Below, piece by piece: positions 14,401-48,421 of a stretch of 55,582 bases of DNA. The position numbers and the translations under genes were made by a program. This stretch comes from Obrimoposthia wandeli. Lineage: Eukaryota. The notes under the pieces are model-generated. The model was not told where the DNA came from. It saw nothing but the letters and a program-made list of their open reading frames with translations, and searched no databases. How positions within the stretch are numbered: the stretch's first letter is position 1; the number at the start of each line of letters is the position of its first letter. Location: positions 62,001 through 117,582 of the forward strand of contig CDROCS010000229.1 of assembly GCA_977020255.1 (NCBI GenBank). Direction: 5' to 3'.

Positions 14401-14879
14401 TAGGTTGATATGTCCGGTCTAATCCACCCCTTCCCCCAGTTTACTGGCAGTGGATGGTACGGTGGTCAAAGTGGAGAAATTAAATTTGAAAATTAAGCGC
14501 ATGGGATACTTGAATTCCGTCAAGAGCGAATTTTAAGCAGGTCCCTGCGATTCCTGGCTTACCATTGCCTTCTAAATTCATCAATTTGTCCGCCCGCCCG
14601 TCCCTATACATGACTTTATGAATTATATAAAGCAACGTATACGTTTTTTCTATCTACCCCTAACACCCTAAAAATATTAATTAGCCCTATTTAACACCCT
14701 TTAAATTCAAAATCTCATAGTGCTCCCACATAGTCAGGAAGTGCCTGAGAAGCCATCTATGGGCCAACGCGTGCCCTTCGGTCCCGCGGTTGCCCGACGA
14801 GCAATATATATATATATATATATACAGGGTCCCGCCAGAATACAGAAGCTGTAGCAGCAAGGAGATCCAATCTCTTTGA

Positions 14880-17801: not shown

Positions 17802-18051
17802 ACAATACTTATAATATTTACAAAATAAAATTTTCAACCAATAACAAAATACCTAAATTACAAATAAACAATCCTTTTCATTGGAGGAAATTTTTAAAAA
17901 ATTAATATTATCAACAAATAACAGATAAACAATCGTTCTAATTGGAGGAATAAATTAGAAATTTCATCCAATAAAAAAAGAGCATGTGTGCATAAAATTT
18001 AGTATGTAAGAAAACACTTTTTTTTCATTTCAATCTTCGATTTTTGAAATA

Positions 18052-18800: not shown

Positions 18801-19261
18801 CTTCCATCGCGAGTACTACATCGATGTTAATCATTAATAATTATGATGTAATAATTTAAATAAATTTGTTCTAACAAAGTTCACTGACATGATATATCTT
18901 TCGGGGAGTTCATACATTTCTTCACCTAAATCTCTTCAACTTTCACGTTTCATTGTTAACGTACAAAACAGTGATAACCTTTGATTTCTGTATAGCGTGT
19001 TGGCCATCCTCAAAAGGGATATATTTACTGAGCACAGAGAGCGTGTCAGTAAATATACCCATTTTAGATGAATTTCCAAACGCATTTCCATCGTGTTTCA
19101 TAATCTCAAAGGATATGATTTGCATTATATACTTAAATACGCGTTGGGTACATTAAGTTCTTGGGAAATTTCTTGTATATCTCAAACTTCAGAGAAATAG
19201 TTTATCTTAAACTGCATATACTGAATTCTGCAGTTTAAGATTTATAGATTCTCTGTAGTTT

Positions 19262-19807
19262 TTGAGTGGTTACTCGAGTTATATAGGTCAAACGGTTTTA
19301 GACATTTCCAAACTCAGAATGTACGAGCTTCAATACATAGAATTGGAGAAATATCGACAAGAATTTTATTGTGAGATCAAAATCGCAGCTGGGGACACTG
19401 ATTCTTTATTTTTAGAATGTAGGAATGTTAGTTTAAATAATCAATTATTACCAGCAATGTTTAGGGACAACTTACTAGATACCCATAAATATCCTACTAA
19501 CCATCCTCTACACTCTATGAGTTTAAAGGACATTATCGGGAAATTTAAGGATGAAAGCGAGGGACACGTTTCGTATGATGATTGTATTTTCCTACGCCCT
19601 AAATGCTACAGTTTACATGCATCTAATAATACATGTTCAATGAGAGCAAAGGGTGTGGGAAGAAACAATCTTACACATGAGGCCTACCGGAAAGTTTATG
19701 ATACTGGGCGTATTGAAAGCGTTGAGCAAACTAGATTTATTTCAAGAGCTAAATGTATTCCCATAAAATCAACCAAAATTATAGTAATTATAGAAAAGTC
19801 AATTTAG
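19262..19807 (+). pseudogene. Protein-primed family B DNA polymerase, C-terminal fragment (Polinton type)
   Basis: YIGQTVLDISKLRMYE…GDTDSLF…LDTHKYPTNHPL…IGKFKDESEG…FLRPKCYS…RAKGV matches the Polinton pPolB palm/thumb. Truncated at both ends. Confidence 0.9.
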
Positions 19808-20384
19808 AATTTAAACGACAGTTTTTAAACCCTATTTGACTTACTTTTTATTTCATCAACCTTTACGGTAATTCTGACCCAACCAAATATGAGTGATGAA
19901 TGACATATCCCAGTATTTCAGATATTAACTTACACAGCTATGGATTTCGTCAAATTTATTCCAGCTCAACTTGATTGTCTTCATTAGGTATTTTTTATTA
20001 TTATTTTTAAATTATATATTTTATTTTATATATATTTTTATTTTTGTTTACAAAATGTCAATCGGCATTTCTACAACAGAATGTCCACCATAGTAATCGA
20101 TGTTAGCAGAAATAATAATTTTATATACTCAACAGAAAAAACAGCCGCTTTCTTCACGGCAAGGTCATTTCAACATCAGCTAAAACATCGGCAATAAAAT
20201 AGCTTAATAGTGCAATTGCCTCAACATTGTCCAATATTTGAAATATAACTATTGTCTTCCGTTCAATTATATGCAGTCGGTGAGGTACACAGAGCTACTA
20301 ACTTTATAGTTATTAAAATACTAGGTTAGATTCATAGAAAATTTTTAAGGTTAAAAAGACAGTCACTTGATAAAATAACAATAA

Positions 20385-21735
20385 CGTATGTTTACAAAGT
20401 AAATTTATTGTAAACGATAGTAAACTATCAATGACTTTTTTATGTAATGCAAATATTAGAGTATTAACTTACAATATATTAAACTGAATATGTTTTTACA
20501 AGATCTTTTATTATACAAAAACATTAAAATTATGATTAATAAGTAAACTACTTTGAAGTTTTTGTTGTAAAATTATAATAAAGTAACTTACAACGTATTA
20601 AAGTGAATATATGAATAAATAAATATATTAAAAATATCACTAATTTTATGTAGACTTACAAGTAATCTGTAGGATAAAACGATAGTAAAATATCAATGCA
20701 TACTTTTTTATGTAATGGAATATTACAGTAATAATTTACAACGTATTAAATGAATATGCACAATGTTAAAATTATGTTTACAAGTTAATTTATTGATCAA
20801 ATCATTAAAAATTATGATTATTAAGTAAAGTACTTGAGTTGTTTGTTGTAAATTATATTAAAGTAATAACTTACAACATATTAAATTGAAAATATACAAA
20901 AATATACTATGTTTACAAGTCAATGTATTGTACAAAACATTAATATTATGATTATTAAGTAAACTACATGAAGTTTTTGTAGTAAATTATATTACAGTAA
21001 TAACTTACAACATTTTAAACTGTATATATGCAACAACAAATAAATATTGTAGTTTACAAGTAAATTTGTTTTTGTTGTAAATTATATTAAAGTAATAATC
21101 TTACACCATATTAAATTGAAAATATACCAAAATAAATTATGTTTACAAGTCAATTTATTGACAAAACATTAAACTTATGATTAATAAGTAAACTACTTGA
21201 AGTTTTTGTTGAAAATTATATTAAAGTAATAAGTTACAACATATTAAAGTTAATATATGCATAAATATATTATGTTTACAAAGTCAATTTATAGTAAACG
21301 ACAGTAAAATATCAATACTTTTTTTATGTAATGGAATATTACAGCACATAATTTTACAACGTATTAAACTAAATATATGCAAAATAAATTATGTTTACAA
21401 GTCAATTTATTGTAAACGACAGTAAACTATGAATTACTTTTCATGTAATGAAATATTACAGTATTAACTTACAATATATTAAATGAATATGCACAATAAA
21501 TTATGTTTACAAGTCAATTTATTGTACAAATCCTTAAATTATGATTAATATGTAAACTACTTGAAGTTTGTTGTAAATATTTTATGTTTACAAGTCAATT
21601 TATCGTACAAATCATTAATATTAAGATTATTAAGTAAATTACTTGAAGTTTAGGTTGTAAATTATATTAAAGTAATAACTTACAACATATTAAAGTGAAT
21701 ATATGCAAAATTATAATATTATATTTACAAGTCAA
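20385..21735. repeat. AT-rich satellite (satellite 2 family), older and more diverged copy
   Basis: Units such as TTATGTTTACAAGTCAATTTATTGTACAAAACATT…AAGTAATAACTTACAACATATTAAA, the same family as 36540-39615. Confidence 0.9.
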
Positions 21736-22661
21736 TTTTCGAATGTCTAGTAAACAAAATTAAATAACTCGAAAAAACATTTACTATTTGAAATAATAAA
21801 CCTAATAGTACTTTATATTTGAAATTTATATTATATGCAGTCGGTGAGGTACAGCTACTAACTTTATAATTAAAATATTTTTTATAGTTTAAGGTTAGAA
21901 TCACTTGATAAAAACTACAATAATGTGATAAAGAAATATTATTTAACATATAAAAATGAATTTTTGAAGAAATAAATTGAATATTCATATTATATTAATA
22001 AGACAATGACAAAAATATCAAGTAATTAAAAAATAAAATTGTTTGTTGAGTTAATTTACTAAATTTGTATATAAATATATTTTCGAATAGTTAAAAAGAG
22101 AAATGAATATTGATAATTTCAATTATATTTACGAATATAAATTTATAATCAAGTTATTTAAAAATAAAGAATTTAAATTTATCTAATTATTTAAAATATT
22201 TCAATTAAGGAATTTTATCAAACGAGATAAGACATTTTAATTATTTAATTGCATGAGTATGTATGAAAGGTTAACTTTAATATGGAGGTAAACTATGTGA
22301 AAATATGAAAGTTCGCATCTTAATTATTATAACTTCATCATAACTTACATCATCTTCATTGATTGATAGTATTAATTTAATAATTAGCTAGTACTCACTT
22401 GCAGTTTAAGATTCACTTGCAGTTTAAGATTCACTTGCAAAGATTCTTACTTGTATTTGCATTCATATTTGCATTCACTTACATTCATACTTGCATTCAC
22501 TTACATTCATTCTAACTCTCATATATTTAAACTAACATTCAAATTCATTAATATATTTACTAATTTTCATTCATAATTGACATTCGTACTTGCATATTGC
22601 GTATTCTTTCTTACTTGTACTTGACCCTGCATTCATACTTGCATTCATTTACATTCAATCT

Positions 22662-23185
22662 AACTGTAATTTATTCAAACTATCATTCAAATACATTTAA
22701 ATACATTAATATTTTACTAATTTTCATTCATACTGTCAAATTTGGTGTTGTTTTCTATTAATCTTGCCATAACTTAGTCGTTCTAATTTTTAACATACTT
22801 CAATATCACTGCTTCTTATAGTTGCTTACTTGTTATTAATTTACTGTAACTTAACATAACTTTATTCATACGAAAACTCTATTTTAATTTACTTATAGTC
22901 TAAATTACACACACATTCAATCAAACTGTAATTTATTCAAACTATCATTCAAATACATTCAAATACATTAATATTTTACTAATTTTCATTCATACTGTCA
23001 AATTTGGTGTTGTTTTCTATTAATCTTGCCATAACTTAGTCGTTCTAATTTTTAACATACTTCAATATCACTGCTTCTTATAGTTGCTTACTTGTTATTA
23101 ATTTACTGTAACTTAACATAACTTTATTCATACGAAAACTCTATTTTAATTTACTTATAGTCTAAATTACACACACATTCAATCA
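22662..23185. repeat. ~262-bp tandem duplication related to the reverse complement of satellite 1
   Basis: AACTGTAATTTATTCAAACTATC begins at 22662 and again at 22924, and the two copies are near-identical. Confidence 0.9.
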
Positions 23186-24259
23186 AACTATCGACACTCT
23201 TATTTTTAAATTACATTCACTTACTAAGACACTTACTTGTATTTGCATTCATTTGCATTCATACTTGTATTCATTTACATTCAATCTAACTCTCATTTTT
23301 TTTTTCAAACTTTCATTCAAATATTCAAATAAATTAATATTTTACTAATTTTCATTCATAGCGTTAAACTTAGTGTTGTTGTTTTGTTTTTTTCTTTTTC
23401 TATTAATTCCGTTGTAACTTAGTTGTTAAATCGGAAAGAATGTATAAAGAATGGATTTTCTTACTTTACAAATGTTATTCACTTAAGTTTGAAGATGATA
23501 TTATGAAATTACATAATAAATATGTTTAATTTTGTATTATTCTCTGACTTCTTTCTTATTTTATTTTTTTTTATTTTAATATATAATTTAAGTTATTTAA
23601 AGAAATTTTATCATAATTCTATAAATGTATAAGCCTAGGAAAAAAATTTTGATCTAAACTTTCACATAGAATAGTGTGTGTGTTAAAAACCACATTCCTT
23701 AACTGATAAGAGTGAACTTTAGCCTTGATTTTCACATAGAATAGTGTGTGTGTTAAAAACCACATTCCTTAACTGATAAGAGTGAACTTTAGCCTTGATT
23801 TTCACATAGAATAGTGTGTGTATTATTACGTAATACATTCCTTAACTTTTAAGTGTGAACTTTCACATGATCTTAATTATACCTTCAAAGTTTCAAGTCA
23901 AAACTGACCTTGACCCTTTTATTTATGGACGATCATAGTGGTATATCAAAGAAGGGTGGAGACTAGATCACTTGACTCTTTGAATTATGGACGATCATAG
24001 TGGTATACCAAAGAAGGGTGGAGACTAGACCACTTGACTCTTTGAATTATGGACGAACATAGTGGTTAGCCAAAAGAAGGGTGGAGACTAGACCACAAAA
24101 AGAAGGGTGGAGACTAGACCACTTGACCCTTTGAATTATGGACGATCATAGTGGTTAGCCAAAAAGAAGGGTGGAGACTAGACCACAAAAAGAAGGGTGG
24201 AGACTAAGCCACTTGACCCTTTCATAGTGGTATATCAAAGAAGGATGGAGTCTAGATCA
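23181..24259 (+). repeat. Truncated right TIR of Polinton copy A, with 70-bp and ~55-60-bp internal tandem repeats
   Basis: Collinear with 39924-40890. It stops after …GAAGGATGGAGTCTAGATCA. Confidence 0.9.
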
Positions 24260-24633
24260 TTTTGCAAATATTGTTCCTTCAACTTTCTTATGTTTGCTTA
24301 TACTATTTTTTTGCTTCTTTTACGTTTAAATCCACTATCTTCTTGGCTTTCATTTGATTTACCTTTACTAATCAAATTAGCAACGTCAGGTAAAACATTA
24401 TCAAGTTCATTAAGTGCATGATTCTTAAAAATTGGTGGTAGTTTATTGTACTTAGATGAAAAGTAATCCTTTCCTAAATTTGATACAAACCGCCTGAGTC
24501 TCTTCAAAAGAGGAAAGGCAAATCTACCTAATGTTCTAAGCCAGCCGGATTCATATTGTTTACCAACAAAATATGATAATTCTCCACCTTGTTGGCTTTG
24601 ACTATAAACTTCAATTATTGCCGAATTCGCCAT
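24260..24633 (-). pseudogene. Small basic Polinton protein (QxGG…GWLRTLGRFAFPLLK amphipathic N-terminus; basic C-terminus)
   Basis: ORF 24298-24633. It resembles the conserved small gene that follows the minor capsid protein in Polintons. A -1 frame near the end gives KRSKKNSISKHKKVEGTIFAK*. Confidence 0.7.
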
Positions 24634-25646
24634 TTTGTTTTCTTAAATGTATTGTTAAACTTGTCTTGGCTCCGTACGTGAAATATATTAGTTGTCCGGA
24701 ATCATCTCTAATATTTACTTCAACATTGTTTATAGAAAAGAGAGCAACTGGAAGATACATTGGTTGATCTATACGAATACCGATAACGTCCCCAACTTTA
24801 GTTTGACTTTGAGATATCCATATTGTTCTCAAAAGTGGAACTTGTAGACTTCCTACAAACGTTGGTTCTATTAAATTAGTATAAATATATTAACTATTTA
24901 TAGCATTTATAGCATTTAGAAGTTTTGCCCTATTTTTCTGTAATGGTTTTTATTTAATGGGTTTTAAAGGTATTTCGGGTTAAACCGAGGTTTTTAGCAA
25001 CTTTATCATTAAATGGAACCCGTTTTTCATTGCTATTTACTGTAATTGTCAATTTACCATTTTTTAATGTTATATAATTATCCAAATATTCACTTAATTA
25101 TCTATTTTATAATCTGTTGAAAATATTTTCAGTTCCACAACATCCTTTACTCTCGTTTCAAGTAACAACACTCTTGCTTCTCTCCAGGAACATTTCTAAC
25201 CGATTTAGATGAGACTATATTCCATCTATTATGAGCTACTGTTTGTTCACTATCAAAACCAAATTGAAGAGCTTATTTTTCAGATTCAAATGTAATTTAA
25301 ATAAATTTAATAAAATTTAATCGATTTTTAAATCTGACTTTGTTATTTTCATATATTACTTTCACTTCTTTATATATACAATTTTAATAGAATTGTCCTT
25401 TACTATCAAACCCGATCACAACTTTATTTGTTTTTTCATAATTAAATTATTTTGTAAACGAAATATGTTAGTTTTTTTCTGATAGTAATTAGAGAATAAT
25501 AAAAAAGAAAATTCAGTTAAAGCCGCTTCCCATTCTCCTTGGAGATTTATATGAGTTTACCAATCGATAATAAAGCTATTAGCATCATTATCCGGTTGAG
25601 TCTTCGAGCATCCGTTACTAGGTAAAACCATATACATAGACTTCAT
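24611..25646 (-). pseudogene. Polinton minor capsid protein (penton)
   Basis: N-terminus MKSMYMVLPSNGCSKTQPDNDANSFIIDW*THINLQGEWEAALTEF. C-terminus YIYTNLIEPTFVGSLQVPLLRTIW…PMYLPVALFSINNVEVNIRDDSGQLIYF…LTIHLRK. Internal stops. Confidence 0.85.
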
Positions 25647-25779: not shown

Positions 25780-26096
25780 AAAAAAGGAGCTGTTGAAATC
25801 GTGACCTTCTTTTCTGCAAATCAAACATTTGTGATTGAGAATACATTGATTTCGGAAACATGCTCTTGGCTGAAGTTCTTCACTAAGTTATGTTATCTTT
25901 TAGTTATTTGTTTTAAGTAAAACCTTGGTATTGGTCTCATATTATTTTGATTTTGGGCGTCTCTATTTATGTATATTTTTTCTTCATTAACATAATTTAT
26001 TTGTTCCTGATGTACTGGCACTGGTACTGATAGTGGGTGTTTCTTTGTATTGTTTGAGAAATTTCGGTTGTATTCCTTTTGTTTCTGTATTTGCAT
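25780..26096 (-). pseudogene. Retrotransposon gag fragment with a decayed zinc knuckle
   Basis: CLICRKEGHDFNSS fits CX2CX4HX4C with the last Cys changed to Ser. Confidence 0.5.
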
Positions 26097-26099
26097 ACT

Positions 26100-27654
26100 T
26101 ATTCTGAGACAAGTAAGAGCAAAAATGTATGTTTGTCTATTTGCTTGTCTACAGACTCGAGCAGTTCATTTGAAGATGGCATATGGTTTGGACACTGATG
26201 CATTCGTCAGAGCGTTTAAAAGGTTCATAGGAAGGATAGGAAAGCCAACATTAATGTTGTCAGATAACGGTTTGAATTTTGTGGGAACAGCAAATTAATA
26301 GAATAAGTTAAGTTCGATATTTATGCACTTAAACAGAGTTTGTAAAGAAATCTATTAGATGGATTTTCAATCCGCCAGGTAGTCCTCACGGGTTGGGTAC
26401 AACTCATCACTGCCATCTCATCTCATTACTGCCTTCTCATCTCCAGCCCAACTCCTCACCAGCGATGAAAATGTTATTATGTTTATGATTTCATATTTGA
26501 AAGGAAAACAATATTTTTTCGTTATTTTTTCATTTTAACGAAAATATACGGTAATGGAATTTTATTACATTTTAAGTACAGTTCAATGAAAAGGATAGTC
26601 ACAGAAAATATAAACTTTCAGAAATTGGAGGTTGATTAATGAAATTCAGTGGATATTAAAAACATCTTTATTCAGATTCAAAGTATGACACTTTCTTGAT
26701 GCTAAAAATAGATTAAATCCTAAATAATTAAAATCCTAATGGGTTTACTGGCAGAATTTAAAATAAATAAAGAATTTAAAATAAATACAAACGTTGTTTG
26801 TTTACAAGTAGTTGAGTTTGTAATTGAGTAATTGTTGACTAATGTTTGCTTACAAGTAGTTAAGTTGGTAATTGATTCTGTGACTATCCTTTTCATTGAA
26901 CTGTACTTAAAAAGTAATAAAATTCCATTACAGTATATTTTCGTTAAAATGAAAAAATAACGAAAAAAGGTTGTTTTCCTTTCAAATATGAAATCATAAA
27001 CATATAAAATCATGAGTTGGGCCGGCGATGAGAAGGCCAGATATGGATTGGGCTGGCGATGATATGGCGGCGATGAGTTGGGCTGGTGATGAGATGGTGG
27101 CAATGAGTTGTCCCATTCCCGTCCTCATTTTAGTGGTGTATTTGAGATAATGGTAAAATCAGTAAAAGGGTGATGAAAAGAGTGATGGAGAGTGCGGAAT
27201 TGATGGATGAAGAATTTGATACGATGTTAATTGAAGTTGAGAGTCTTGTAAATTCTAGGCCATTGAGTTATGTGTGTCTAGATAATAAGGAAATTACTTC
27301 ATTGACGTCAAATTTTTGTTGATACCTGTAGATACGGTAAATTGCGAACTGACCGCGAATAATGTAAAATTTCGGTGGAAGTTGCTACAAGGTCTGGTGG
27401 AGCAATTATGGAAAAGATGGATGGAGGAGATCGTGCTGATGTGGACAGTTAGACAGAAGTGGTGGGAAACGAAAGAGCCATTAAAAGTAGACAATGTCGT
27501 GTTGGTATTGGAGAAGAAAAATGAGCGAGGAAAATGGCCATTGGCGAGAATACTAGAATTAATAAAAGGACAAGATGGATTGGTACGGGTAGCAAAATTG
27601 ATGGTAGAAGGAAAGAAGACGAAGTCTGTCGGAAATTTATATAGGGTATTGTGA
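26100..27654 (+). pseudogene. pol: BEL/Pao integrase and C-terminal domain, interrupted by a MITE
   Basis: [17 protein letters not shown]…FKRFIGR.GKP…[19 protein letters not shown]|F.GVFE.MVK…EVESLVNSRPLSY, and LWKRW…RQKW…RGKWPLARI…GQDGLVRVA. Confidence 0.92.
26390..27120. mobile_element. 731-bp non-autonomous DNA transposon (MITE), GGG…CCC termini, ~220-bp TIRs
   Basis: Long imperfect inverted repeats with subterminal GATGAGTTG-type repeats. 8-bp TSD GTCCTCAC (26382-26389) / GTCCTCAT (27121-27128). Removing it restores the integrase PPGSPHF motif. Superfamily undetermined (MULE- or Merlin-like). Confidence 0.88.
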
Positions 27655-31165: not shown

Positions 31166-33701
31166 ACGGTCAGTAAAGTTCGTTCAGCAGGTTTTAGTTT
31201 TGTTGCAGTTAGAGCAACCGTGGACACTGAGACTATTAACGACTGGAAACAATAACTCTTCTTATATACTTGCATTGCTGTACTACGGATTTATTTAGTT
31301 GTCTTGACTTCTTTATAGGTAAATATTCTCTATTGTTGGGAAATCAAAACTAACAAAGCGATTTTCTGTAATTTGAAAATGTAAAATCGATAACCAATTA
31401 ATATATGATGTGCATAAACTCAAAGTTGTGGCCACCCCCAAAAATGGCCAGTTTACTTGAGTATGTTTCACGGTCACGTTTCAGAGGTTTCATACTAATA
31501 AAGTCTGAAATTACATTTTCATCTTGCATTTCTTGCGAAACGTCTTTTGTAACATTTTAGGCGTTAACAGTTCAGGATTAATAACAATGACACTTAAATC
31601 ATTACATTAAATTTATTAAACCTTTGGGGCCATTTCAAGGTTATGTAAATATATTTCAATATTACCTCTATTAAACTTATCCATTTGATTTAGTCCTGTT
31701 GATCCGAAATCTTCACCTATTAAAATAAAACAGCGTCAATATGAAATAACTTCTTATCACTTTAAAAATGTTTGAGAAATTTTGATATTGAAATTAAAAA
31801 ATGTATTTAAGTCATATCCAAAATTACCACCACAACACGACAACATAAGTAGGGAGATTTAATGTCATAACATAATGTCTAAATCTGTGCTTATATAAGG
31901 TTTTCTTACATGTAACTTTATTGCAAATAGAAATAATATCATTTTCCCATGTTATATCAAATGAGTTGTGCTAAATTAACCTTCAGTCAGTATTAACCGG
32001 AATGGAGCCGCATTGCTACAAATATGGTTAATTCAAAATAACAAACAAACTGTATTTGGTGAATTACTAGGAATTGCAGCTGCTACAAACATGGTTATAA
32101 ATAACAAATTACAATTTTCAATGGTGATGTTAACTTTTGAGGCTCGCAAAATGATACAATAGTTAGGTTAAACTTCATCATTTATAAACTAGATTTATTT
32201 TCCAAAATATATCTGAAATTGAGGACAATTTGAATTTGTTTAACTACAGTTAACTTCAGTCAATGCCTAACCAACATAGACCTAAGCGAAAATTTAGAAA
32301 TTCAACTTAAATATATGAAATTTTAATTAATTGTAAATGAAAAATATCAAAACACAAAATGAAATTTGTAAAACTGACAAGAGCCTTACACTAATCAAAG
32401 AATAGTCATAAATCAATACTAAAAATGTCTATTTGTGGTTATCATTCAATTCAGACCACGATAGTGAAATCAAAGTCCGTTTTTTTCTTTCCAGGCTCTC
32501 ACCGGGTGGTCAGCAATGTCTAATACGTTTATTTATTTCGACATTTGTTACCATTTACAAAAAACACATTGATTTTATTTTAATCTGTTTTGTTCAATAA
32601 TGGTGAATTTTGTCATATAATTTTTTGATGAAATCCTGATTAAAATATCATTGAAAATGCAACAAGAAATATAGAGTAAACAAAACAAGTTAGAACAAAA
32701 GTTTTTTATATACTTTAAACTTGAGTTCTTCAAAAGTTTAGCGGTTCACCGTTCATGAGAACTGGATACTTAACGTGTATATTATTATTGTAAAAATGAG
32801 TTGCCTTCACCATACAGTGGCACAATACTAAAATTAGTCATAAGTCTAAATGCTTGACGACTGGAGGCATGGTGGCTCAAAAACGAACAGGCTAATATAG
32901 CCAGACACCGAAACTCAAATATCTTTAAAGTGCAACAATCCCTCGACCTCGATTAGCCAATCCACACACACACCCCCGACGCAAATACGTTATTCAGCCA
33001 CTGCTCATTCACATAATTTGTACTCTTTTAATTAAGTAATTTTTATTTTTTTTACAGTTTCCTATAGTGTTTATCTACCATGTTTATTAAATAACATTTT
33101 CTATCAATATGGACAAAGTGTAGATTGGACGTTTCCTGATTTGTTGACATCTAGTTCAGCCAGACAAATTCGAAACAGTTTTTTCAATTTCTAGTAAAAT
33201 ATATGTTAATTAACTCTTTCATTTTGAATCGAATTAGATTTAACAAGTGTTGGAGAAAACAATAAAAATACACTTATAAATGATTTACTGAATGGATATA
33301 AATTAAAATTTTAAAATGATTTAATATTTTTTTAATGTCCATAAATAAATATTCAAATCTAATATTGCTTATGGCAATAGCAAGGATTTCCATATATCTA
33401 AAAGTATTTTAACATTATTTATCTTTTAAATATAAAATAAAAAGTATACTCAATAACGGATAAAAGTAATAAATAGTCAATAAACAGGTACCAGACATAT
33501 TAAACGACTAAATTGAATACTCACTATTATTCTTTTTTTGAACCTTCAATGATGGCCACAGCAAGAAACTTTAATCTAAAATATATGAATAATTTATAAA
33601 TTACTTATAAGAGTCAAACATGTCTAAAATAAATACAAGGATTTTAATGAGAATTTTCTGCAGAAAATAGAAAATTAGCGGATCCAGAAACTAGAGTAGG
33701 T

Positions 33702-33922
33702 GGAAGGATGGAGTCTAGATCACTTGACCCCCCCCCCCTAAAGGGTGTCACTCCATAAGGATGTCACACCATAAAAGGTGTCTTGCCACACCATAAGGGT
33801 ATATGTTGCCTCACCTCTGGTAACATATACCCGCTTATGGTAATGTCATTGCCTGGTAATGACTACTATGGTGTGACACCTTTAGGGAGAGAAGGAAGGG
33901 TCAAGTGATGCAGACTCCATCC
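33702..33922. other. Left terminal palindrome (~220 bp, imperfect)
   Basis: GGATGGAGTCTAGATCACTTGACCC…TAAAGGGTGTCAC pairs with GTGACACCTTTAGGG…GGGTCAAGTGATGCAGACTCCATCC. Centre ~33817. Confidence 0.85.
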
Positions 33923-33974
33923 CATGATATACTATGGTCGTCCATAGTTTAAAGGGTCAAGTGGCTTAGTCCAC

Positions 33975-34275
33975 CCCATCTTTTTGTGATCTAGTCTCCA
34001 CCCATCTTTTTTTGTGATCTAGTCTCCACCCATCTTTTTTGTGATCTAGTCTCCACCCATCTTTTTTGTGATCTAGTCTCCACCCTTCTTTTAGTGATCT
34101 AGTCTCCATCCTTATTTTAGTGATCTAGTCTCCACCCATCTTTTAGTGATCTAGTCTCCACCCTTCTTTTAGTGATCTAGTCTCCACCCTTCTTTTAGTG
34201 ATCTAGTCTCCACCCATCTTTTTGGCTAACTACTAATTCAAAGGATCAAGTGGCTTAGTCTCCACCCTTATTTTT
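33975..34275. repeat. 26-27-bp tandem array in the left TIR (~10 copies)
   Basis: Repeats of GTGATCTAGTCTCCACCC(A/T)TCTTTT. Confidence 0.95.
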
Positions 34276-34829
34276 TTGTGATCTAGTTCATAAGCGAAAT
34301 TTATGATAAAGTTTTATAACAATTAAGAATGTATGACGTAATCATACACACTATTCTATGTGAAAATTTAGGCTAAAAGTTCACTCTTATAAGTTAATGA
34401 ATGTATTACGTAATCACACACATACTATTTTATGTGAAATTTAGATCAAAGTTTTTCCCTAGGCTTTCACATTTATAGGAGTATGATAAAATTTCTTTAA
34501 ATAACTTCAATTATATATTAAAATAAAAAAATAAAATAAGAAAGAAGTCAGAAAATAATACAAAATTAAACACATTTATTATGTAATTTCATAATATCAT
34601 CTTCAAACTTAAGTGAATAACATTTACAAAGTAAGAAAGTCCATTCTTTATACATTCTTTTCGTTTCAACGACTAAGTTACAACAAGGAATTAATAGAAA
34701 ATTAGTAAAAATATTAATTTATTTGAATATTTGAATGAGTTTGAATTAATGAGAGGAGTAGAATGAATGTAAATGAATAAGAATTATGCATGCACAAGTA
34801 TGAATGTCATTTACAAGTAAGAGTCTTAG

Positions 34830-36478
34830 CAAGTGAATGTAATTTTAAAATAAGAGTGTCGATAGTTTGATTGAATACAAGTGTAATTTAGACTATAAGT
34901 AAATTAAAATAGAGTTTTTTGTTGAATAAATTATAGTTAGATTGAATGCAAATATGTTGAGCAAGTGATTGATAGTTTGAATTTTCAATTACAAGTAAGT
35001 GGAGTTTAGCAAGTGAATGTAATTTTTAAAAATAAGAGTGTCGATAGTTTGATTGAATGCAAGTGTAATTTAGACTATAAGTAAATTAAAATAGAGTTTT
35101 TGTTGAATAAATTATAGTTAGATTGAATGCAAGTATGACGAGCAAGTGATTGATAGTTTGAATTTTCAATACAAGTAAGTGGGTTTAGCAAGTGAATGTA
35201 ATTTTTAAAAATAAAATTAATCGATGGATTTGATTGAATGCAAGTGTAATTTAGACTATATGTAAATTAAAATAGAGATTTTGTTGAATAAATTATAGTT
35301 AGATTGAATGCAAGTATGACGAGAGCAAGTGATTGAAGCCAGTTTTGAGATTTTTCAATATTACAAGTAAAGTGGGTTTAGCAAGTGAATGTAATTTTAA
35401 AAATAAGAGTGTCATTGGTTTTGATTGAATGCAAGTGTAATTTGGAGCTATAATTAAATTAAAAAAAATTTTTGTTGAATAAATTATAGTTAGATTGAAT
35501 GCAAGTATGACGAGCAAGTGATTGATAGTTTGAATTTTCAATACAAGTAAGTGGAGTTTAGCAAGTGAAGATAATTTTAAAAATAAAGTGTCGATAGTTT
35601 GATTGAATGCAAGGGAATGTAATTTAGACTATATTAAATTAAAATAGAGTTTTGTTGAATGTTAGATTGAATACAAGTATGACGAGCAAGTGATTGATAG
35701 TTTGAATTTTCAATGATACAAGTAAGTGAGTTGCTGGATAATTTTAAAAATAAGAGTGTCGATAGTTTGATTGAATGCAAGTGTAATTTAGACTATAAAT
35801 ACCAAATTAAAATAGAGTTTTTGTTGAATAAATTATAGTTAGATTGAATGCAAGTATGACGAGCAAGTGATTGATAGTTTGAATTTTCAATACAAGCAGG
35901 AGGGTGTAGAAAGTGAATGTAATTGTAAAAATAAGAGTGTCGATAGTTTGATTGAATGCAAGTGTAATTTAGACTATAAGTAAATTAAAATAGAGTTTTT
36001 TGTTGAATAAATTATAGTTTAGATTGAATGCATATGACGAGCAAGTGATTGATAGTTTGAATTTTCAATACAAGTAAGTGGGTTTAGCAAGTGAATGTAA
36101 TTTTAAAAATAAGAGTGTCGATAGTTTGATTGAATGCAAGTGTAATTTAGACTATAAGTAAATTAAAATAGAGTTTTTGTTGAATAAATTATAGTTAGAT
36201 TGAATGCAAGTATGACGAGCAAGTGCTTGATAGTTTGAATTTTCAATACAAGTAAGTGGGTTTAGCAAGTGAATGTAATTTTTAAAAATAAGAGTGTCGA
36301 TAGTTTGATTGAATGCAAGTGTAATTTAGACTATAAGTAAATTAAAATAGAGTTTTTGTTGAATAAATTATAGTTAGATTGAATGCAAGTATGACGAGCA
36401 AGGATTGATAGTATGAATTTCAATACAAGTAAGTGGGTTTAGCAAGTGAAAGATGTAATTTTAAAAATAAGAGTGTCA
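34830..36478. repeat. Satellite 1, ~179-bp unit, ~9 copies
   Basis: AAGAGTGTCG recurs at ~34852, 35034, … 35932, 36111, 36290, 36470. Confidence 0.95.
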
Positions 36479-36539
36479 ATGTTATATAATAGTTTAATAA
36501 AGTTAATCATTGAATACAAGAACACAAATTCTAATAACT

Positions 36540-39500
36540 TAAAACGTATTAAAGTGAATAATGCATAAATATATTATGTTTACAAGTAAATTTATAGTAA
36601 ACGACAGTAAACTATGAATTACTTTTTATGTAATGAAATATTACAGTATTAACTTACAATATATTAAATTGAAAATATGCAAATTATATTATGTTTACAA
36701 GTCAATTTATTGATCAAATCATTAAATTATGATTATTAAGTAAATTTCTTGAAGTTTTGGTTGTAAATTATATTAAAGTAATAACTTACAACATATAAAT
36801 TGAAAATATACCAAAATAAATTATGTTTACAAGTCAATTTATTGTACAAAACATTAAACTTATGATTAATAAGTAAACTACTTGAAGTTTTTTGTTGAAA
36901 ATTATAATAAAGTAATAACTTACAACATATTAAAGTGAATATATGCATAAATATATTATGTTTACAAGTCAATTTATTGTAAACGATAGTAAACTATCAA
37001 TTACTTTTTTATGTAATGTGTTATTATAGTAATAACTTACAATATATTAAATTGAAAATATACAATTATATTATGTTTACAAGTCAATTTATTAATCAAA
37101 TCATTAATATTATGTTTAATAAGTAAACTACTTGAAGTTTTTTGTTGAAAATTATAATAAAGTAATAACTTACAACATATTAAAGTGAATATATGCATAA
37201 ATTTATTGTAAACGATAGTAAACTATCAATTACTTTTTATATAATGAAATATTATAGTAATAACTTACAATATATTATATTGAAAATATGCAAATTATAT
37301 TATGTTTACAAGTCAATTATTGATCAAATCATTAAAATTATGATTAATAAGTAAATTACTTGAATATTTGGTTGTAAATTATATTAAAGTATTAACTTAC
37401 AACATTTTAAACTGAATATATACAACAACAAATAAATATTGTAGTTTACAAGTAAATTACTTGAAGTTTTGTTGTAAATTATATTAAAGTAATAACTTAC
37501 AACATATTAAATTGAAAATATACCAAAATAAATTATGTTTACAAGTCAATTTATTGTACAAAACATTAAACTTATGTTTAATAAGTAAACTACTTGAAGT
37601 TTTTGTTGAAAATTATAATAAAGTAATAACTTACAACATATTAAAGTGAATATATGCATAAATTTATTGTAAACGATAGTAAACTATCAATTACTTTTTA
37701 TGTAATGTAATATTATAGTAATAACTTACAATATATTAAATTGAAAATATGCAAATTATATTATGTTTACAAGTCAATTTATTGATCAAATCATTAATAT
37801 TATGATTATTAAGTAAATTACTTGAAGATTTGGTTGTAAATTATATTAAAGTATTAACTTACAACATTTTAAACTGAATATATACAACAACAAAATAAAT
37901 ATTGTAGTTTATAAGTAAATTACTTGAAGTTTTGTTGTAAATTATATTAAAGTAATAACTTACAACATATTAAATTGAAAATATACCAAAATAAATTATG
38001 TTTACAAGTCAAATTATTGTACAAAACATTAAACTTATGATTAATAAGTAAACTACTTGAAGTTTTTGTTGAAAATTATATTAAAGTAATAAGTTACAAC
38101 ATATTAAAGTTAATATATGCATAAATATATTATGTTAACAAGTCAATTTATTGTACAAAACATTAAACTTATGTTTAATAAGTAAACTACTCGAAGTTTT
38201 TGTTGAAAATTATATTAAAGTAATAACTAACAACATTTTAAACTCAATATATACAACAACAAATAAATATTAGCTCATAAGTAAAATAATTGAAGTTTTT
38301 GTTGTAAATTATATTAAAGTAATAACTTACAACATATTAAATTGAAAATATATCAAAATAAATTATGTTTACAAGTCAATTTATTGTACAAAACATTAAA
38401 CTTATGTTTAATAAGTAAACAACTTGAAGTTTTTGTTGTAAATTATATTAAAGTAATAACTTACAACATATTAAATTGAAAATATATCAAAATAAATTAT
38501 GTTTACAAGTCAATTTATTGTACAAAACAATAAACTTATGTTTAATAAGTAAACTACTTGAAGTTTTTTGTTGAAAATTATATTAAAGTAATAACTTACA
38601 ACATTTTAAACTAAATATATACAACAACAAATAAATATTGTAGTTTACAAGTAAATTACTTGAAGTTTTTGTTGTAAATTATATTAAAGTAATAACTTAC
38701 AACATATTAAATTGAAAAATATATCAAAATAAATTATGTTTACAAGTCAATTTATTGTACAAAACATTAAACTTATGTTTAATAAGTAAACTACTTGAAG
38801 TTTTGTTGTAAATTATATTAAAGTAATAACTTACAACATATTAAATTGAAAATATATCAAAATAAATTATGTTTACAAGTCAATTTATTGTACAAAACAT
38901 TAAACTTATGTTTAATAAGTAAACTACTTGAATATTTGGTTGAAAATTATATTAAAGTAATAACTTACAACATTTTAAACTAAATATATACAACAACAAA
39001 TAAATATTGTAGTTTACAAGTAAATTACTTGAAGTTTTTGTTGTAAATTATATTAAAGTAATAACTTACAACATATTAAATTGAAAATATATCAAAATAA
39101 ATTATGTTTACAAGTCAATTTATTGTACAAACATTAAACTTATGTTTAATAAGTAAACTACTTGAAGTTTTTGTTGTAAATTATATTAAAGTAATAACTT
39201 ACAACATATTAAATTGAAAATATATCAAAATAAATTATGTTTACAAGTCAATTTATTGTACAAAACATTAAACTTATGTTTAATAAGTAAACTACTTGAA
39301 TATTTGGTTGAAAATTATATTAAAGTAATAACTTACAACATTTTAAACTAAATATATACAACAACAAATAAATATTGTAGTTTACAAGTAAATTACTTGA
39401 AGTTTTTGTTGTAAATTATATTAAAGTAATAACTTACAACATATTAAATTGAAAATATATCAAAATAAATTATGTTTACAAGTCAATTTATTGTACAAAA

Positions 39501-39615
39501 CATTAAACTTATGTTTAATAAGTAACCATTTGAAGTTTTTGTTGTAAATTATATTAAAAGTAATAACTTACAACATATTAAACTAAATATATACAACAAC
39601 AAATAAATATTGTAG
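36540..39615. repeat. Satellite 2 with higher-order structure (134-134-101 bp, ~369-bp HOR in the distal half)
   Basis: The marker ATATTAAAGT falls at 38311, 38445, 38580, 38681, 38815, 38949, 39050, 39183, 39317, 39418, 39551. Confidence 0.93.
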
Positions 39616-39923
39616 TCAGTAAATTTTCGAATGTCTAGTAAACAAAATTAAATAACTCGAAAAAACATTTACTATTCGAAATAATAAACTTAATAGTACT
39701 TTATATTTGAAATTTATGTTATATGCAGTGGGCGGGGTACAGCAACTAACTTTATAATTAAAATATTTTTATAGTTTAAGGTTAAAATCACTTGATAAAA
39801 ACCACAATAATGTGATAAAGAATATTATTTAACATATAAAATGAATTTTTGAAGAAATAAATTGAATATTCATATTATATTAAACGGACAATGGCAAAAA
39901 AAAATATCAAGTAATTTAAAAAA

Positions 39924-41107
39924 AATCAAACTATCGACACTCTTATTTTTAAAATTACATTCACTTGCTAAGACTCTTACTTGTAAATGACATTCATACT
40001 TGCATGCATAATTTTATTCATTTACATTCATTCTACCTCTCATTAATTCAAACTCTCATTCAAATATTCAAATAAATTAATATTTTTACTAATTTTCTAT
40101 TAATTCCGTTGTAACTTAGTCGTTGAAACGAAAAGAATGTATAAAGAATGGACTTTCTTACTTTGTAAATGTTATTCACTTAAGTTTGAAGATGATATTA
40201 TGAAATTACATAATAAATGTGTTTAATTTTGTATTATTCTCTGACTTCTTTCTTATTTTATTTTTTATTTTAATATATAATTGAAGTTATTTAAAGAAAT
40301 TTTATCATAATTCTATAAATGTGAAAGCCTAGGAAAAACTTTGATCTAAATTTCACATAAAATAGTATGTGTGTGATGCAATACATTCATTAACTTATAA
40401 GAGTGAACTTTAGCCTAAATTTTCACATAGAATAGTGTGTGTATGATTACGTCATACATTCTTAATTGTTAAGTGTGAACTTTATCATAAATTTTCATTA
40501 TGAACTAGATCACAAAAAAAAATAAGGGTGGAGACTAAGCCACTTGATCCTTTGAATTAGTAGTTAGCCAAAAAGATGGGTGGAGACTAGATCACTAAAA
40601 GAAGGGTGGAGACTAGATCACTAAAAGAAGGGTGGAGACTAGATCACTAAAAGATGGGTGGAGACTAGATCACTAAAATAAGGATGGAGACTAGATCACT
40701 AAAAGAAGGGTGGAGACTAGATCACAAAAAAGATGGGTGGAGACTAGATCACAAAAAAGATGGGTGGAGACTAGATCACAAAAAGATGGGTGGAGACTAG
40801 ATCACAAAAAGATGGGTGGAGACTAAGCCACTTGACCCTTTAAACTATGGACGACCATAGTAGTATATCAAGGAAGGATGGAGTCTAGATCACTTGACCC
40901 CCCTCCTTTCCTCCCCTAAAGGGTGTCACACCATAAGGGTGTCACACCATAAAGGTGTCTTGCCACACCATAAGGGTATATGTTGCCTCACCAGGGTGAG
41001 GCAACATATACCCTTATGGTGTGCAAGCACCTGGTGTGACATCCTATGGAGTGACACCCTTTAGGGGGGGGGGGTCAAGTGATCTAGACTCCATCCTTCC
41101 ACCTACT
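39924..41107 (-). repeat. Right TIR of copy B, including the 26-27-bp array at ~40520-40830
   Basis: Reverse complement of 33695-34872. Confidence 0.93.
40872..41100. other. Right terminal palindrome (229 bp, imperfect)
   Basis: Arms 40872-40992 and 40995-41100, centred on CCTCACC-AG-GGTGAGG. Confidence 0.92.
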
Positions 41108-41299
41108 AACTAGATATAATACAGCATATATCACTGTAATTGCTCGATTTATTCGATTTCAAATAACTTGGTTATTTAACTGAAATAATTATGCATAATA
41201 TGCTGGAAAGGAGCTGAATTTATTTAAACGTACTTTCTTTTGCGCAAACAATCTGTTATAATTGATACCGCTGTCTCAGACCCTGAATATTTAAAATAA

Positions 41300-41420
41300 G
41301 CGATTTCCTCAGGGAACCAAACTTGGTCTGATCCTATTTTTGATTTATATTTCATTATTAAGAAATCAAATATTAATCTCAACCTTTATGCTGATGATAC
41401 ACAACTTTATGTTGATTTAC
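41300..41420 (+). pseudogene. Non-LTR (CR1/L2-like) RT fragment
   Basis: PQGTKLGLILF…NLNLYADDTQLY. Confidence 0.75.
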
Positions 41421-43529: not shown

Positions 43530-45666
43530 CAGTAATACTCCTAACAGTGCGGGTAATTCGTGCCAGATTTGTCCCGCACTGTTTGATGCATTATATAATG
43601 GGTTTAATAGTAATACATTCCGGACTGAATAAATATCGATACGTACATACGATAATTAATTAAAAGTTATTAAATTCATTAAAATCGAGCATTAACAGAG
43701 ATAATGAAACAAGATTAAATATTTATTGAAACAAAAAGAATATTGGAAGGTTTTTATTGTTTAGAAAAATATTTAAGCAAAGAAGTTTGATCTGATTTCT
43801 TCTTCTTTTTTGTGGCATAAAGTTCTCTGTTGCATTGAATACTGTGTTTACTGTCAACAATGTTTCGGACTTGGATGCTGTGTTCGACATTTGGGTATCC
43901 ATTCATAATAATTTTGGAAGCTTCATCATAAACTGAAAATAATTTGTCCATGCTAAATTATTTAATTTCAACTGGATCATCATTTGATTCTTTTTCTTCC
44001 TCTTCTTCATATGTTCGTTGCTAATCAATTTCTACGAGAGTTTCATTATCGAGCTCACCAGATTCACGCACATTAGCATTGTCTACATTATTAAATCCAA
44101 GCACTTTCCCGATCTGAACCATATTTTCTACAACAGTTTTAACTTTAGGTTCAAAACCACCAAAATAATTTGCGCAGTGAGGCAAAAGCTTTTCCCAGCT
44201 CTCATGTAACTTCACGCCATGCTGAATCAATATTTGCAGTTGATATTTTGATATTATAGTTCTTCCAAAAATCAGTTAATGAAATGGCATTTTCTCCTAC
44301 CGTAACTTTAATTGCTTAAGAAAAAGCTTGTCTCATATAATAAGCCTTGAATGTTGCAATCACTCCTTGGTCCATCGACTCTAATAACAAAGTTGTGTTC
44401 GGCGGTAAAAATACAATTGTACCATTGTTATTTAAATCACCAAGTGCAGGTGATGTCCTGGTCCGCTATCTAATAACAAAAGAATTTTAAATTCCATGTC
44501 ATTTCCTTTGCAATATCGTTCAGTTGCGGGACAAATATAATTTGGGAACCAGTCTTCAAATAAATCTCTCGTAACCCACGCCGTTCGATTCGATCGCCAA
44601 AATACTGAGAGAGTATTTTTGGCATAACCTTTAAAAGCTCTTGGATTGTTTGCTCGGTAAACAACCATAGACTTCAATTTAAATTCACCAGACGCATTTT
44701 CACCAAACAAAAGAGTCAGACTATCGTTTGCAATTTTATACCCTGATGCTTCTTCTTTTTCAGCTAAATATGTTCGAGGAGTAATTTTCTTCCAAAACAA
44801 TCCTGTTTCATCCACATTAAATATTTGATGATCACTGTAATTACCATTTTCAATAATTTTTTCTAATTTATCAGGATATTTTGCGCTGCTTCTACATCAA
44901 CACATGCACTTTCACCAACAATTCTAACATTATGAATTTTTGTACGTTCTTTAAAGCTATTGAACCAACCGCGGCTAGGATTAAAAGATTTTTCTTCATT
45001 TGTTTCTTCATTTGTAGTCGTAGAGGTCTCCCCTTCATTTTCATTTTGAGTGGTAACTGCGCTAAAAAGACTTCATGCTTTTTCTTGAATAAAAGGCTGA
45101 CTGAGTGGAATTCTTTCTTCATTACAATATTCAATCAACATTAATAAAAGTCGCTCCATATTCAACAAATTTGTGTATATATATTTTTTGCAATTCTTTT
45201 TGACATGTACGATGCAGTAGCAAATCCATGATCTTTATATTGTTGTTTCTTCTTTACAATGGCACGCACATATGACTCATTTATTTTATAATCACGTGCA
45301 ATTTTAGCAAATGATGCACCATCTTCATGAAACTTTATAACATCCAGTTTATTTTCTAATGTTAGCCACTGTCGTTTGTTTGAACCAACATTGTCTATGC
45401 TTCCTTCTGTTTGACTTGACATTTCAATACAATCTGTTTTAATAATAGTAATCTGCAATATTGACTCGGAAAAATATCAGATGAAAGAATAATTTCTAAA
45501 ATGTGAGTTCAAGAATATTATATATAGATCTTGAAATCAATATTGATATTTTTAAAGGTTTAAGAATAGTTTCTTTCTATATTTTATTTATTTACTAATA
45601 TTTTACGATATCTGCACTTTAGTTAAACCCGCATTGTTTGAAACCGCATTGTTCGGGCTATTACTG
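43530..45666 (-). mobile_element. pogo/Tigger DNA transposon, full length but decayed (2137 bp)
   Basis: Imperfect TIRs CAGTAATA…AACA(G/A)TGCGG, with TA on both flanks. Confidence 0.9.
43754..45422 (-). pseudogene. Tigger transposase (frameshifted)
   Basis: HTH KRQWLTLENKLDVIK, followed by NVDETGLFWK, LLLLDSGPGH, FLPPNTT…MDQGVIATFKAYY, and C-terminal QTSLLKYF. Confidence 0.92.
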
Positions 45667-46418: not shown

Positions 46419-48421
46419 AGGGTGTCAAGTAGGTTCTCAAAAAGTTTCGTCAGTAATATAATTTATTTTATATAATAATTTTATATATCCATACAAAAAA
46501 TTATATCAAAATGTTCATCCGTTCAGTTACGTTCAACGATTGAAATTAATCGCATTTTATTCAATTCATTTTAAACAAAAATATCCTAAGGGTATTGAAA
46601 AGTGTTTTACTACATCATAATAGTATAAAATTATTAAATATAATTTAAATATCACAATGGTAATATTTATATACTTAATATTTAATTTCGAATTTAAGAA
46701 AGTATGATTTTGCAGTTCAGTCATATTTCAATTTTGAGTTTAATCCTAATAAACTTCCTACAAATGAACAAATTTTGAAGCGTTTGTTATTTTTAAAGAG
46801 TGAAAAGAAAGACTATCCTTTTAGAGTCTGTGCAAATGAAATATTAGAAATATATAAAAAATCAGGTTTAAATAATGGATCCCAAAATTCAATTGAATTT
46901 AAAATTAGAAGACTATTTCAAGAGCATCGGATTGTTTATCGAAATCAAGATACGGAAAGATGCAATATATTTTTAGTTTCTCTTAATAATCTTTTCAAAT
47001 TGGCCAAGTTGGTTCAATCAAAGTTATTAAAAGGGGACATAGAATTTCTTGGTTTACAGAGAGAAATAAATGGTATCATGGCTGGACCTTCAGATGTAAG
47101 GCATGCCTATGGATTTAAATATAAAATTCCTGAAAAATCAAAGTTAATAACAATAAATTGGATAGAGAAACGGACTGTTATTCTGCTAAAGACTACATAA
47201 ATCCTTCCGATAGTACAGATTCTGAATATGAAGACAATTCTAAAAAGTTGAGAATTTGTGATAGGCGTTGTATATATCTTAGAGTAGCTTCAGGTTTATT
47301 GGATATATCTCATGAAACAATACGACTAAGGCGAAAAAAACAGAGAGAATCTGTCTATATTAAAATTCAAAAAATTGTTGAGAATGTGTTAAATGTCGTA
47401 GTTCATTTTGATTGTAAGAAGTGCGATGGAGTAGAAAGAATAGCAGTTGTTATTGTTGATATAAATAATAATGGAATGGAGTACATATTAGGCGTCTGTT
47501 TCAATCGATGGACGAGGAATAACAACTGTGTTTGGGTTATTGACTCGCTGGAATATTATTAATCGAGTTATAGGTTTGTGTTTTTGATACTACAGACTCA
47601 AACACTGGTATCACAACCGGAAGTGTAGCATTGTTGCAACAAAAAATCCCAAAATGTAATTGAATTGCAATGTCATCATATATTGGAATTAATAATTGGT
47701 AACGTTTCTAAACATTCATTCGGATATTCAAATCAACCCAATATCGGAGTAATTAAGTTTGTTGCTGATGTACGTTCTATGTATAATAAAAATTATGACA
47801 AATACTCTAAAGTGCACTATCCTAAACCCTTAGATATGGGTAATTTAGTTATTGAATTTTTAATAAAAATTGTTCAAGATAGTAAAATTATTCGTAGAGA
47901 TGATTATAAGGAATGTTGTAATATAATTCTGGGTACACCAGTGAAACTACTAAAAATCATCCCAGTTTCAAATGCAAGATGGATGTGCAAAATAAGCTAT
48001 TGCATAAATTTATTTGATGAAAATTAAATAGGTTTTTAATTTTTATTGTTTATTGGATATACTATTGTATTATATTTTAAGTTAGATGCAAGAAATGCTG
48101 AAAGAGCATCAGATAATACAAATTAATGCTCAAAAATTGAACCTCTCAGATTGATGAAGCGTATGACAATAATTATCGACGCTGCAGTTGATAAATTTTA
48201 AAAAAATTATAACTTATTCGATTTATGTTTATGAGTTTAATTGAATAATATTTAAATATGACCATCTTTTAAATATAATTGTACTTTTTAAATACTTTGA
48301 CACAAACTGATCTAATGAATTAAAATAAAAATAAACACATCACCATTCATAATTTTAAATTATTTCTAAAACTCCAACTGAAGAAATTAGATTGGTAAAA
48401 AATTAAAAACATTGACACCCT
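46419..48421 (+). mobile_element. Decayed hAT-superfamily transposon (hATm-like)
   Basis: Short inverted termini AGGGTGTCAA / TTGACACCCT enclose a transposase remnant. No clear TSD. Confidence 0.6.
46775..48200 (+). pseudogene. hAT-like transposase remnant
   Basis: LNNLFKLA…DIEFLGLQRE, VVVHFDCK…ERIAV, FDTTDSNTG (47583-47609), CHHILELI, RRDDYKEC, ARWMCK. Confidence 0.75.

Follow-up and report, generated by a model that had tools for sequence, protein, structure and literature searches.

The window analysed here, 55,582 nt of Obrimoposthia wandeli contig CDROCS010000229.1 (positions 62,001 to 117,582), contains a Polinton-type element at 33695-41107 that is enclosed by a perfect 6-bp target-site duplication (TSD), AACTAG, at 33689..33694 and 41108..41113. 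From base composition, the chance of such a hexamer match at a given site is 3.4e-4. Read inward from either end, the element starts with AGTAGGT (33695..33701 on the + strand, 41101..41107 on the - strand), and its first 26 nt are identical at the two ends. Terminal inverted repeats (TIRs) of ~1.18 kb occupy 33695..34872 (+) and 39924..41107 (-) and agree in 1129 of 1216 alignment columns. Directly inside the end motif, which remains outside the fold, each TIR carries a long imperfect palindrome: ~221 bp at the left end (33702..33922, +; centre near 33816), with an intact outer and a degraded inner arm, and 229 bp at the right end (40872..41100, -; centre near 40994). The anatomy and coordinates given in the first-pass annotation, a 6-bp TSD followed by AGTAGGT and a palindrome at both termini, were correct.

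Further inward lie subterminal arrays of a 26-bp unit, detected by repeat analysis (33970..34222, 9.5 copies, and 40571..40825, 9.7 copies; both +), whose 18-nt core is found again at the base of each palindrome arm. The interior holds a 178-bp tandem array (34812..36477, +, 9.3 copies), an AT-rich array with ~134-bp units and higher-order periods of 228-463 bp (36638..39616, +), and a unique segment (39618..39925, +) that recurs with 92.6% identity at 21730-22036 in a truncated relative, copy A, described below. Seven nt inside the base of the right hairpin stands AGTAGT (40859..40864, +), the canonical end motif in inverted orientation, which has no intact counterpart at the left end or in copy A. 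No start-to-stop open reading frame (ORF) of at least 100 aa was present within 33695-41107, and tblastn with 971 ORFs from comparator loci gave zero matches there; by these two scans, the element contains no gene for a protein-primed family B polymerase (pPolB), rve integrase, ATPase, protease or capsid protein. An Rfam search of 33400-41400 likewise returned 0 matches. Because it encodes no genes, the element is best explained as a non-autonomous Polinton/Maverick derivative and not as an autonomous member.

The assignment to the Polinton type, also made by the first-pass annotation, is supported, if indirectly, by the 6-bp TSD, the AG...CT ends, the TIR length and the Polinton gene remnants on either side of copy A. 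According to the passages available from two surveys, Polintons/Mavericks have 6-bp TSDs, AG...CT ends and TIRs of 46-1447 bp (PMC8097293; 10.1101/2023.08.22.554363), and AGTAGG matches the Maverick motif (AGT)2 at 5/6 positions (motif list in PMC8097293). The element differs from them in its gene-free interior, in AGTAGG instead of AGTAGT, and in the 229-bp palindrome inside the TIR.

Folding predictions set both palindromes far apart from shuffled sequence: the right one reached -115.4 kcal/mol (z -22.5) and the left one -64 kcal/mol (z -10.2), with 0/200 shuffles as good in either case. On self-BLAST of the window they were the sole palindromes of > 100 bp with moderate GC content; one further palindrome, at 55385, has 15% GC and is 70% matched. 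Once the + strand folds, the right end motif is predicted to form a single-stranded 3' tail: its 7 nt are unpaired in the minimum free energy (MFE) structure, with pairing probabilities of 0.04-0.17. The left MFE structure leaves 11 nt unpaired, so that the claim of exactly 7 unpaired nt at each end applies to the right end. The final 5 nt of this tail could base-pair with 40859-40863, their complement. Only the left inner arm contains a side stem (33845..33863, +), which gives a branched shape in both the MFE and the centroid fold.

The arms measure 114 nt (outer) and 104 nt (inner) at the left end and 106 nt (outer) and 121 nt (inner) at the right, and outer and inner arms agree in 84/114 and 104/121 columns respectively. 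Outer arms at both ends share an uninterrupted C run and two substitutions; inner arms share a purine/pyrimidine bulge within the C run; this bulge is exact in the right inner arm and degraded in the left one. The outer- and inner-specific differences are thus alike at the two ends. Flip/flop arm variants, for which the first-pass annotation had suggested looking, are not seen in the element, whose two ends, a small sample, have one arm orientation. The arms also contain 16-bp units with an internal dyad (33744-33775 and 40922-40953); the right inner arm has this dyad without fault, and in both outer arms a single base interrupts it in every unit.

We conclude that the palindromes are real, ~230 bp in each TIR. 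That fold-back reads gave rise to them in the assembly is hardly credible, although one feature points that way. At both ends the arm met second on the + strand is the shorter and noisier one: the left outer and right inner arms, which come first, agree in 111/122 columns, 8 nt are missing from the right outer arm in 4 events, with zero mismatches, and the left inner arm is 70.7% identical to its right counterpart, compared with 99.2% for the 26-bp array and 94.6% further inward. Nanopore reads are described, in the portion available of PMC7229812, as missing and miscalling bases past the centre of an inverted duplication, and the extra damage in the second-read arms of these two hairpins looks like such error. 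This error pattern, however, arises only where the molecule truly contains an inverted repeat. It is also unlikely that a read chimera was at work: the arm asymmetries recur at both ends, a perfect TSD encloses them, and the inner arm starts alike in copy A. The side stem at the left end may be a real variant or a base-calling error.

Copy A and the Polinton remnants around it

Satellites related to those of the element, together with a right TIR (89% identical over 373 nt), recur in copy A at 20267..24259 (+); its array at 20720-21660 is related to the ~134-bp AT-rich array. Copy A is broken ~21 nt into the inner arm. The arm remnant (24239-24259) keeps two bases that distinguish the arm from the array units, the outer arm, the end motif and the TSD are missing, and the truncated end does not fold (z -0.45). 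Copy A shows shared ancestry of the inner arm; it shows no palindrome. It had been taken as proof that the hairpin is a family trait, and what stands of this is the retained start of the inner arm; the trait itself is not provable from a copy that lacks the outer arm. For this reason the case for recurrence is carried by three distant loci, described below, and not by copy A. We considered AGTAGGT at 14399, followed by TGATAT, as a hairpin-less left end of copy A and rejected it: 180/1000 shuffles did equally well, and no TIR homology accompanies it.

To the left of copy A lies a pPolB remnant in three pieces with large internal deletions (18865..19807, +). The top 35 of its 44 matches were 49-64% identical, with E values down to 1e-51; most of the top matches carried PF03175, several carried PF02945 in addition, and an endonuclease VII domain was frequent among close relatives. 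A degenerate repeat seems to bracket this remnant, as 19900-20120 resembles 18560-18850. On the other side, a Polinton core-protein-like gene adjoins the break of copy A (24304..24636, -). It matched, with E 7e-15, a gene of the comparator locus L025 that stands beside the minor-capsid-like gene there; it also had 21 unnamed homologues and a weak lead in the Atlas, with a low recognition score. Next to it is a broken minor capsid (penton)-like gene (24629..25646, -), which matched the L025 protein with E 2e-20 and 3e-11 and whose nearest named Atlas cluster was PF21507 V18-19 (52% of members), again with a low recognition score. The order of these two genes is the same as in L025. The break (24259-24304) falls at the end of the core-protein gene, where the L025 order predicts the start of the major capsid gene. 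From this arrangement, the centre of the converging Polinton seems to have been replaced by satellites and TIR at copy A.

It is the position of copy A between polymerase, core-protein and minor-capsid remnants, genes typical of Polintons/Mavericks, that ties the element to this group; by sequence, copy A would be either the end of a decayed Polinton or an insertion nested in one. In a Pfam scan covering 28 of the 70 stop-to-stop frames of the window, no Polinton remnant was named, retrotransposon and pogo-like pieces being the only ones recognized (5/28 frames), and no HUH/NS1-type or SF3 helicase gene was found. The pPolB remnant was the sole replicase remnant identified in the window.

Probable terminal hairpins at other polymerase loci

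A profile of 20 homologues of this polymerase, run against a genome contig collection, yielded 63 loci. These lie in bacterial and archaeal metagenome-assembled genome (MAG) records and are probably eukaryotic or viral contigs mis-binned into MAGs. The window fragment was 32% identical to the polymerase of L003 and grouped with database homologues (support 0.97) in a FastTree phylogeny of 46 sequences built from the C-terminal part only, with L002, L056 and L057 left out; a polymerase homologue had no match in the phage collection. Alignment of the 20 homologues revealed an invariant Ser in a G-S-x-W loop, followed by an invariant Cys and His (S220, C272 and H381 of P0006). This motif was present in 13/20 full-length homologues and in all three loci with hairpins (see below). 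By motif and position, it fits the terminal-protein plus vOTU layout of the polymerase set out in the available part of 10.1101/2024.03.18.585575. An endonuclease VII motif occurred in 14/20 full-length homologues and 37/63 loci, including L025, which is hairpin-less. The same source takes such nuclease inserts as probable intein or homing remnants.

Three of the 63 loci carry homologous hairpins of 123-159 nt upstream of the polymerase gene, each starting with ACACACA: L003:9593-9751 (contig CBDAUV010000066.1; z -22.3), L056:2065-2206 (contig CBDCEV010000242.1; z -15.1) and L057:9522-9646 (z -10.8). The Maverick end motifs listed in PMC8097293 are (AC)3A, (AGT)2 and (AG)3. In all three pairwise comparisons the 300 nt upstream of the hairpins were no more similar than shuffled sequence, and the sequence downstream was homologous and ran into the polymerase gene. 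L057 is on a chimeric contig, in which bacterial genes end just ahead of the hairpin and are joined directly to the Polinton-type element. Judged by sequence, and from one end only, the hairpins are probable left termini of elements; they have no TSD of their own, and none of the 63 loci showed both ends plus a TSD. Within the first 34 bp, all substitutions between these loci were mirrored in the other arm (9/9, 8/8 and 11/11); their genes are only 66-79% identical. L003 and L056 moreover have an inner bulge of 1 nt in common, 19 bp from the end, and their arm orientation is alike. GCTCGC repeats near the loop of all three hairpins presumably resemble the Rep-binding repeats of adeno-associated virus.

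A screen for the longest stem in 76 flanks from 45/63 loci flagged L003, L056 and L057 alone; the other 18 loci were omitted, mostly for short upstream flanks, some of them with usable downstream sequence. As this screen scored the bulged hairpins of the window at 25 and 36, similar ones can escape it; self-BLAST of the window and all 63 loci recovered those of the window. A profile of the three comparator hairpins detected no further copy in the 63 loci and the window, bar a 31-nt match with E 0.022, and an exact 25-nt arm motif of the window palindrome had 0 matches in the genome contig collection. Hairpins at L003:8256, L034:4288, L043:1400, L054:428 and L056:719, and several in L027, appeared by eye to resemble miniature inverted-repeat transposable elements (MITEs) and were not counted as ends. 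Downstream of the polymerase, L016:13527-13589 and L041:13673-13735 have a 63-nt hairpin with a paired inner-stem change between the two loci, and L039:3820-12839 and L043:13432-23225 have inverted duplications of 1.5-1.9 kb that start just past the polymerase gene and include an ORF labelled integrase-like from reading its translation.

What the folded ends may do

Tentatively, and with somewhat less than even confidence, we favour a hairpin that does not act as primer but forms a structural part of a protein-primed origin, comparable to a Streptomyces telomere. The element would be moved in trans by a helper supplying an rve integrase and a protein-primed polymerase; the remnants beside copy A suggest the identity of this helper. 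A displaced or excised strand end would snap back into a duplex of ~110 bp, leaving the last 7 nt as a free 3' tail. On this tail, which as it stands would be no primer but the template needed by the terminal protein, the terminal-protein domain of the polymerase would start synthesis; the AG-T-AG repeat in the tail would still permit a jump-back start. The stem could shield the end and display the 18-nt array motif in both orientations as a possible binding site. The product of replication would be a linear duplex in which both palindromes are extended and the end motif is preserved; its insertion by the integrase would create the 6-bp duplication. The rve-type integrase of Polintons acts on an open linear duplex, and the TSD suggests that it did so here on one with extended palindromes. 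In keeping with such a course, the integrated form has a whole palindrome with an intact end motif outside it at both ends. Also in favour are the predicted unpaired 3' tail, the single arm orientation of this copy, the Ser, Cys and His motif retained in the family of the adjacent polymerase, and the recurrence of hairpins at L003, L056 and L057. The closest working analogy comes from Streptomyces linear replicons, where, in the part available of PMC4513846, the terminal protein primes on the last bases of the palindromic, hairpin-forming 3' strand. Homology is not claimed: those telomeres are bacterial, have several short palindromes, are patched by Tap/Tpg after internal initiation and do not involve integration.

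Several points weigh against this reading. The mechanism as a whole draws on sequence and predicted folds, there is one complete copy of the element only, and the polymerase is linked to it only through its position beside copy A, itself perhaps a nested insertion. The first-pass annotation had proposed folding the ends of other Polintons; of 21 regions upstream of polymerase genes, those of the three hairpin loci folded strongly and 18 had no strong hairpin (z -3.6 or weaker), and the candidate AGTAGT ends at L002:1088 (z 0.70) and L025:600 (z 0.67) were unfolded. Because the candidate L002 end is unfolded while that of its close relative L056 folds (their genes are 80-90% identical), the hairpin is, on comparative grounds, dispensable for this polymerase type. 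Furthermore, comparator hairpins have the end motif inside the stem, with little or no free tail, an arrangement that suits self-priming better than the favoured model, and no detectable sequence in common with those of the window. Arm-to-arm copying without selection can suffice for the mirrored substitutions. The plain AGTAGT of L002:1088 beside the hairpin end of L056:2065 also suggests exchange of end modules.

Doubtful, but the strongest of the alternatives, is a neutral by-product: a template switch at a linear end that had folded back would have duplicated the last subterminal unit, TIR-to-TIR copying would have spread the hairpin to both ends, and ordinary protein priming would ignore it. 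The arm base is indeed a variant of the 26-bp array core, and the inverted end motif at 40859-40864 lies just inside the hairpin base, as a fold-back origin predicts. The difference between L056 and L002 and the loss of the hairpin in copy A agree with a feature of no consequence. Against it, long palindromes are prone to deletion, and yet homologous hairpins with matched arms and a common bulge position persist in loci as divergent as L003, L056 and L057. Accidental annealing is also offered as an alternative in the available text of a preprint on Halocafeteria seosinensis (10.64898/2026.07.28.741278; see below).

Self-priming of a rolling-hairpin kind, which the first-pass annotation had proposed, we consider unlikely. 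Here the folded 3' end would prime synthesis after trimming of the tail or its realignment on the internal AGTAG, and the end would be regenerated by a nick, for which the polymerase's endonuclease VII domain is a possible source. Parvoviral ends are similar to these palindromes in size and position, the last 5 nt of the tail can pair with 40859-40863, the comparator hairpins are paired nearly to their last base, and the endonuclease VII motif is widespread among the homologues. The same model was put forward for virophage and polinton-like virus (PLV) palindromes in the Halocafeteria preprint, as far as its available text goes. We disfavour self-priming because the 3'-terminal 7 nt are predicted to be largely unpaired. 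In addition, neither the left end nor copy A has an intact internal AGTAG, the nuclease motif is present in hairpin-less L025 too, and no HUH/NS1-type gene was seen in the frames scanned. The identical arm orientation at both ends and in L003/L056 also counts against it, if weakly, as under free flip/flop it would arise by chance in about one case in four.

Parvovirus inverted terminal repeats have a long imperfect palindrome per end, and the left end of the element may have a comparable side branch. The element differs from them in its predicted unpaired 3' tail, where parvoviruses have a base-paired priming 3' end, in its 6-bp TSD, in the same orientation at its two ends, and in the lack of NS1/Rep: it is non-coding, and neither an HUH endonuclease nor an SF3 helicase was found in the 28 window frames. 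By its testable features it is not a parvovirus-type replicon. Bidnaviruses have a Polinton polymerase, but their TIRs do not form parvovirus-like hairpins, according to the passages available from PMC4061559. Foldback transposons such as Galileo have long, internally repetitive TIRs around little coding sequence (PMC3573991, in the part available), as does the element, which unlike them has no cut-and-paste transposase linked to it. The TSD lengths and end motifs of foldback-type transposons differ from Polinton-type ones.

A bolder form of self-priming appears quite improbable to us, namely that pPolB Polintons repeatedly have long terminal palindromes, an end type so far overlooked, and that in these lineages the folded end primes and the polymerase-borne endonuclease VII nicks. 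If true, an integrase-dependent double-stranded DNA element would replicate like a parvovirus, and the unexplained nuclease insert would have a function.

Least probable by far among the functional readings is an excision signal, in which the chromosomal palindrome would form a cruciform, 7 bp away from the host junction, that is cut or bound by the polymerase endonuclease VII domain or a host junction nuclease; end geometry, PF02945 in close homologues of the adjacent polymerase and the fact that copy A breaks off just within the stem base speak for it, but the nuclease motif is not coupled to hairpins, such inserts are considered probable intein or homing remnants (10.1101/2024.03.18.585575, part available), and a literature search on polinton palindrome cruciforms found nothing.

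The end type itself was recently described and is not unprecedented. A bioRxiv preprint of July 2026 (10.64898/2026.07.28.741278) reports, in its available text, terminal palindromes beside the TSD and within the TIRs of endogenous virophage subtypes 1, 2, 5 and 6 and PLV subtype 4 of Halocafeteria seosinensis, mostly together with replication genes other than pPolB; it draws a hairpin priming model and calls for a global survey of terminal palindromes. The position of the palindrome is the same in our element, but the example palindrome given there measures 52 nt versus ~230 nt here, our element has the 7-nt motif outside the stem, and both it and the three comparators go with pPolB. The claim that such ends are new to Polintons therefore survives in a narrower form: terminal palindromes and hairpin priming are known from virophages and PLVs, and our literature search, which did not cover the original Polinton paper or Repbase, found no report of them in pPolB-type Polintons. 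Terms for palindromes or DNA hairpins gave no passage in the searchable text of four papers on vertebrate Mavericks, nematode Polintons, adintoviruses and coral polintoviruses (PMC8097293, 10.1101/2023.08.22.554363, PMC8502044 and PMC11131425), and one figure legend in the part available of 10.64898/2026.10.13.758929 notes a palindromic repeat that the same text does not discuss. Other mentions of 'hairpin' were no precedents in the passages concerned: protein beta-hairpins in 10.1101/2022.05.25.493380 (33 among the matches listed), giant viruses in PMC12747079 and poxvirus telomeres in PMC11296320. Such ends are easily missed because TIR searches, as designed in the relevant passage of PMC11131425, seek end-to-end repeats across long gaps, and because nanopore reads degrade the second arm (PMC7229812).

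What is new here is a long terminal palindrome that leaves the end motif free and is linked to pPolB. Three distant loci suggest that such ends recur; together with the element they indicate that palindromes several times longer than those of Halocafeteria occur with pPolB too. How Polintons leave the chromosome and start replication has so far been inferred. The cis ends recognized by a helper are contained in this non-coding copy, which has a perfect TSD, and they thus define a small test substrate.

Other features of the window

Upstream of the polymerase remnant, 14400-18860 is GC-richer and has short AT-rich gaps that resemble GT-AG introns; the frames scanned there gave no Pfam match. 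At 26431-27037 an inverted repeat pair (176 nt, 88%) around ~270 nt, MITE-like in form, interrupts BEL/Pao-like remnants at 26011-27654; Pfam recognized DUF5641 and RT-RNase H remnants in the window, and we take DUF5641 to mark BEL/Pao elements, which suggests an animal host. Finally, two broken coding regions lie at 44024-45476 and 46679-48027, a pogo/Tigger-like transposase (DDE_1, CENP-B_N) and one without a name.

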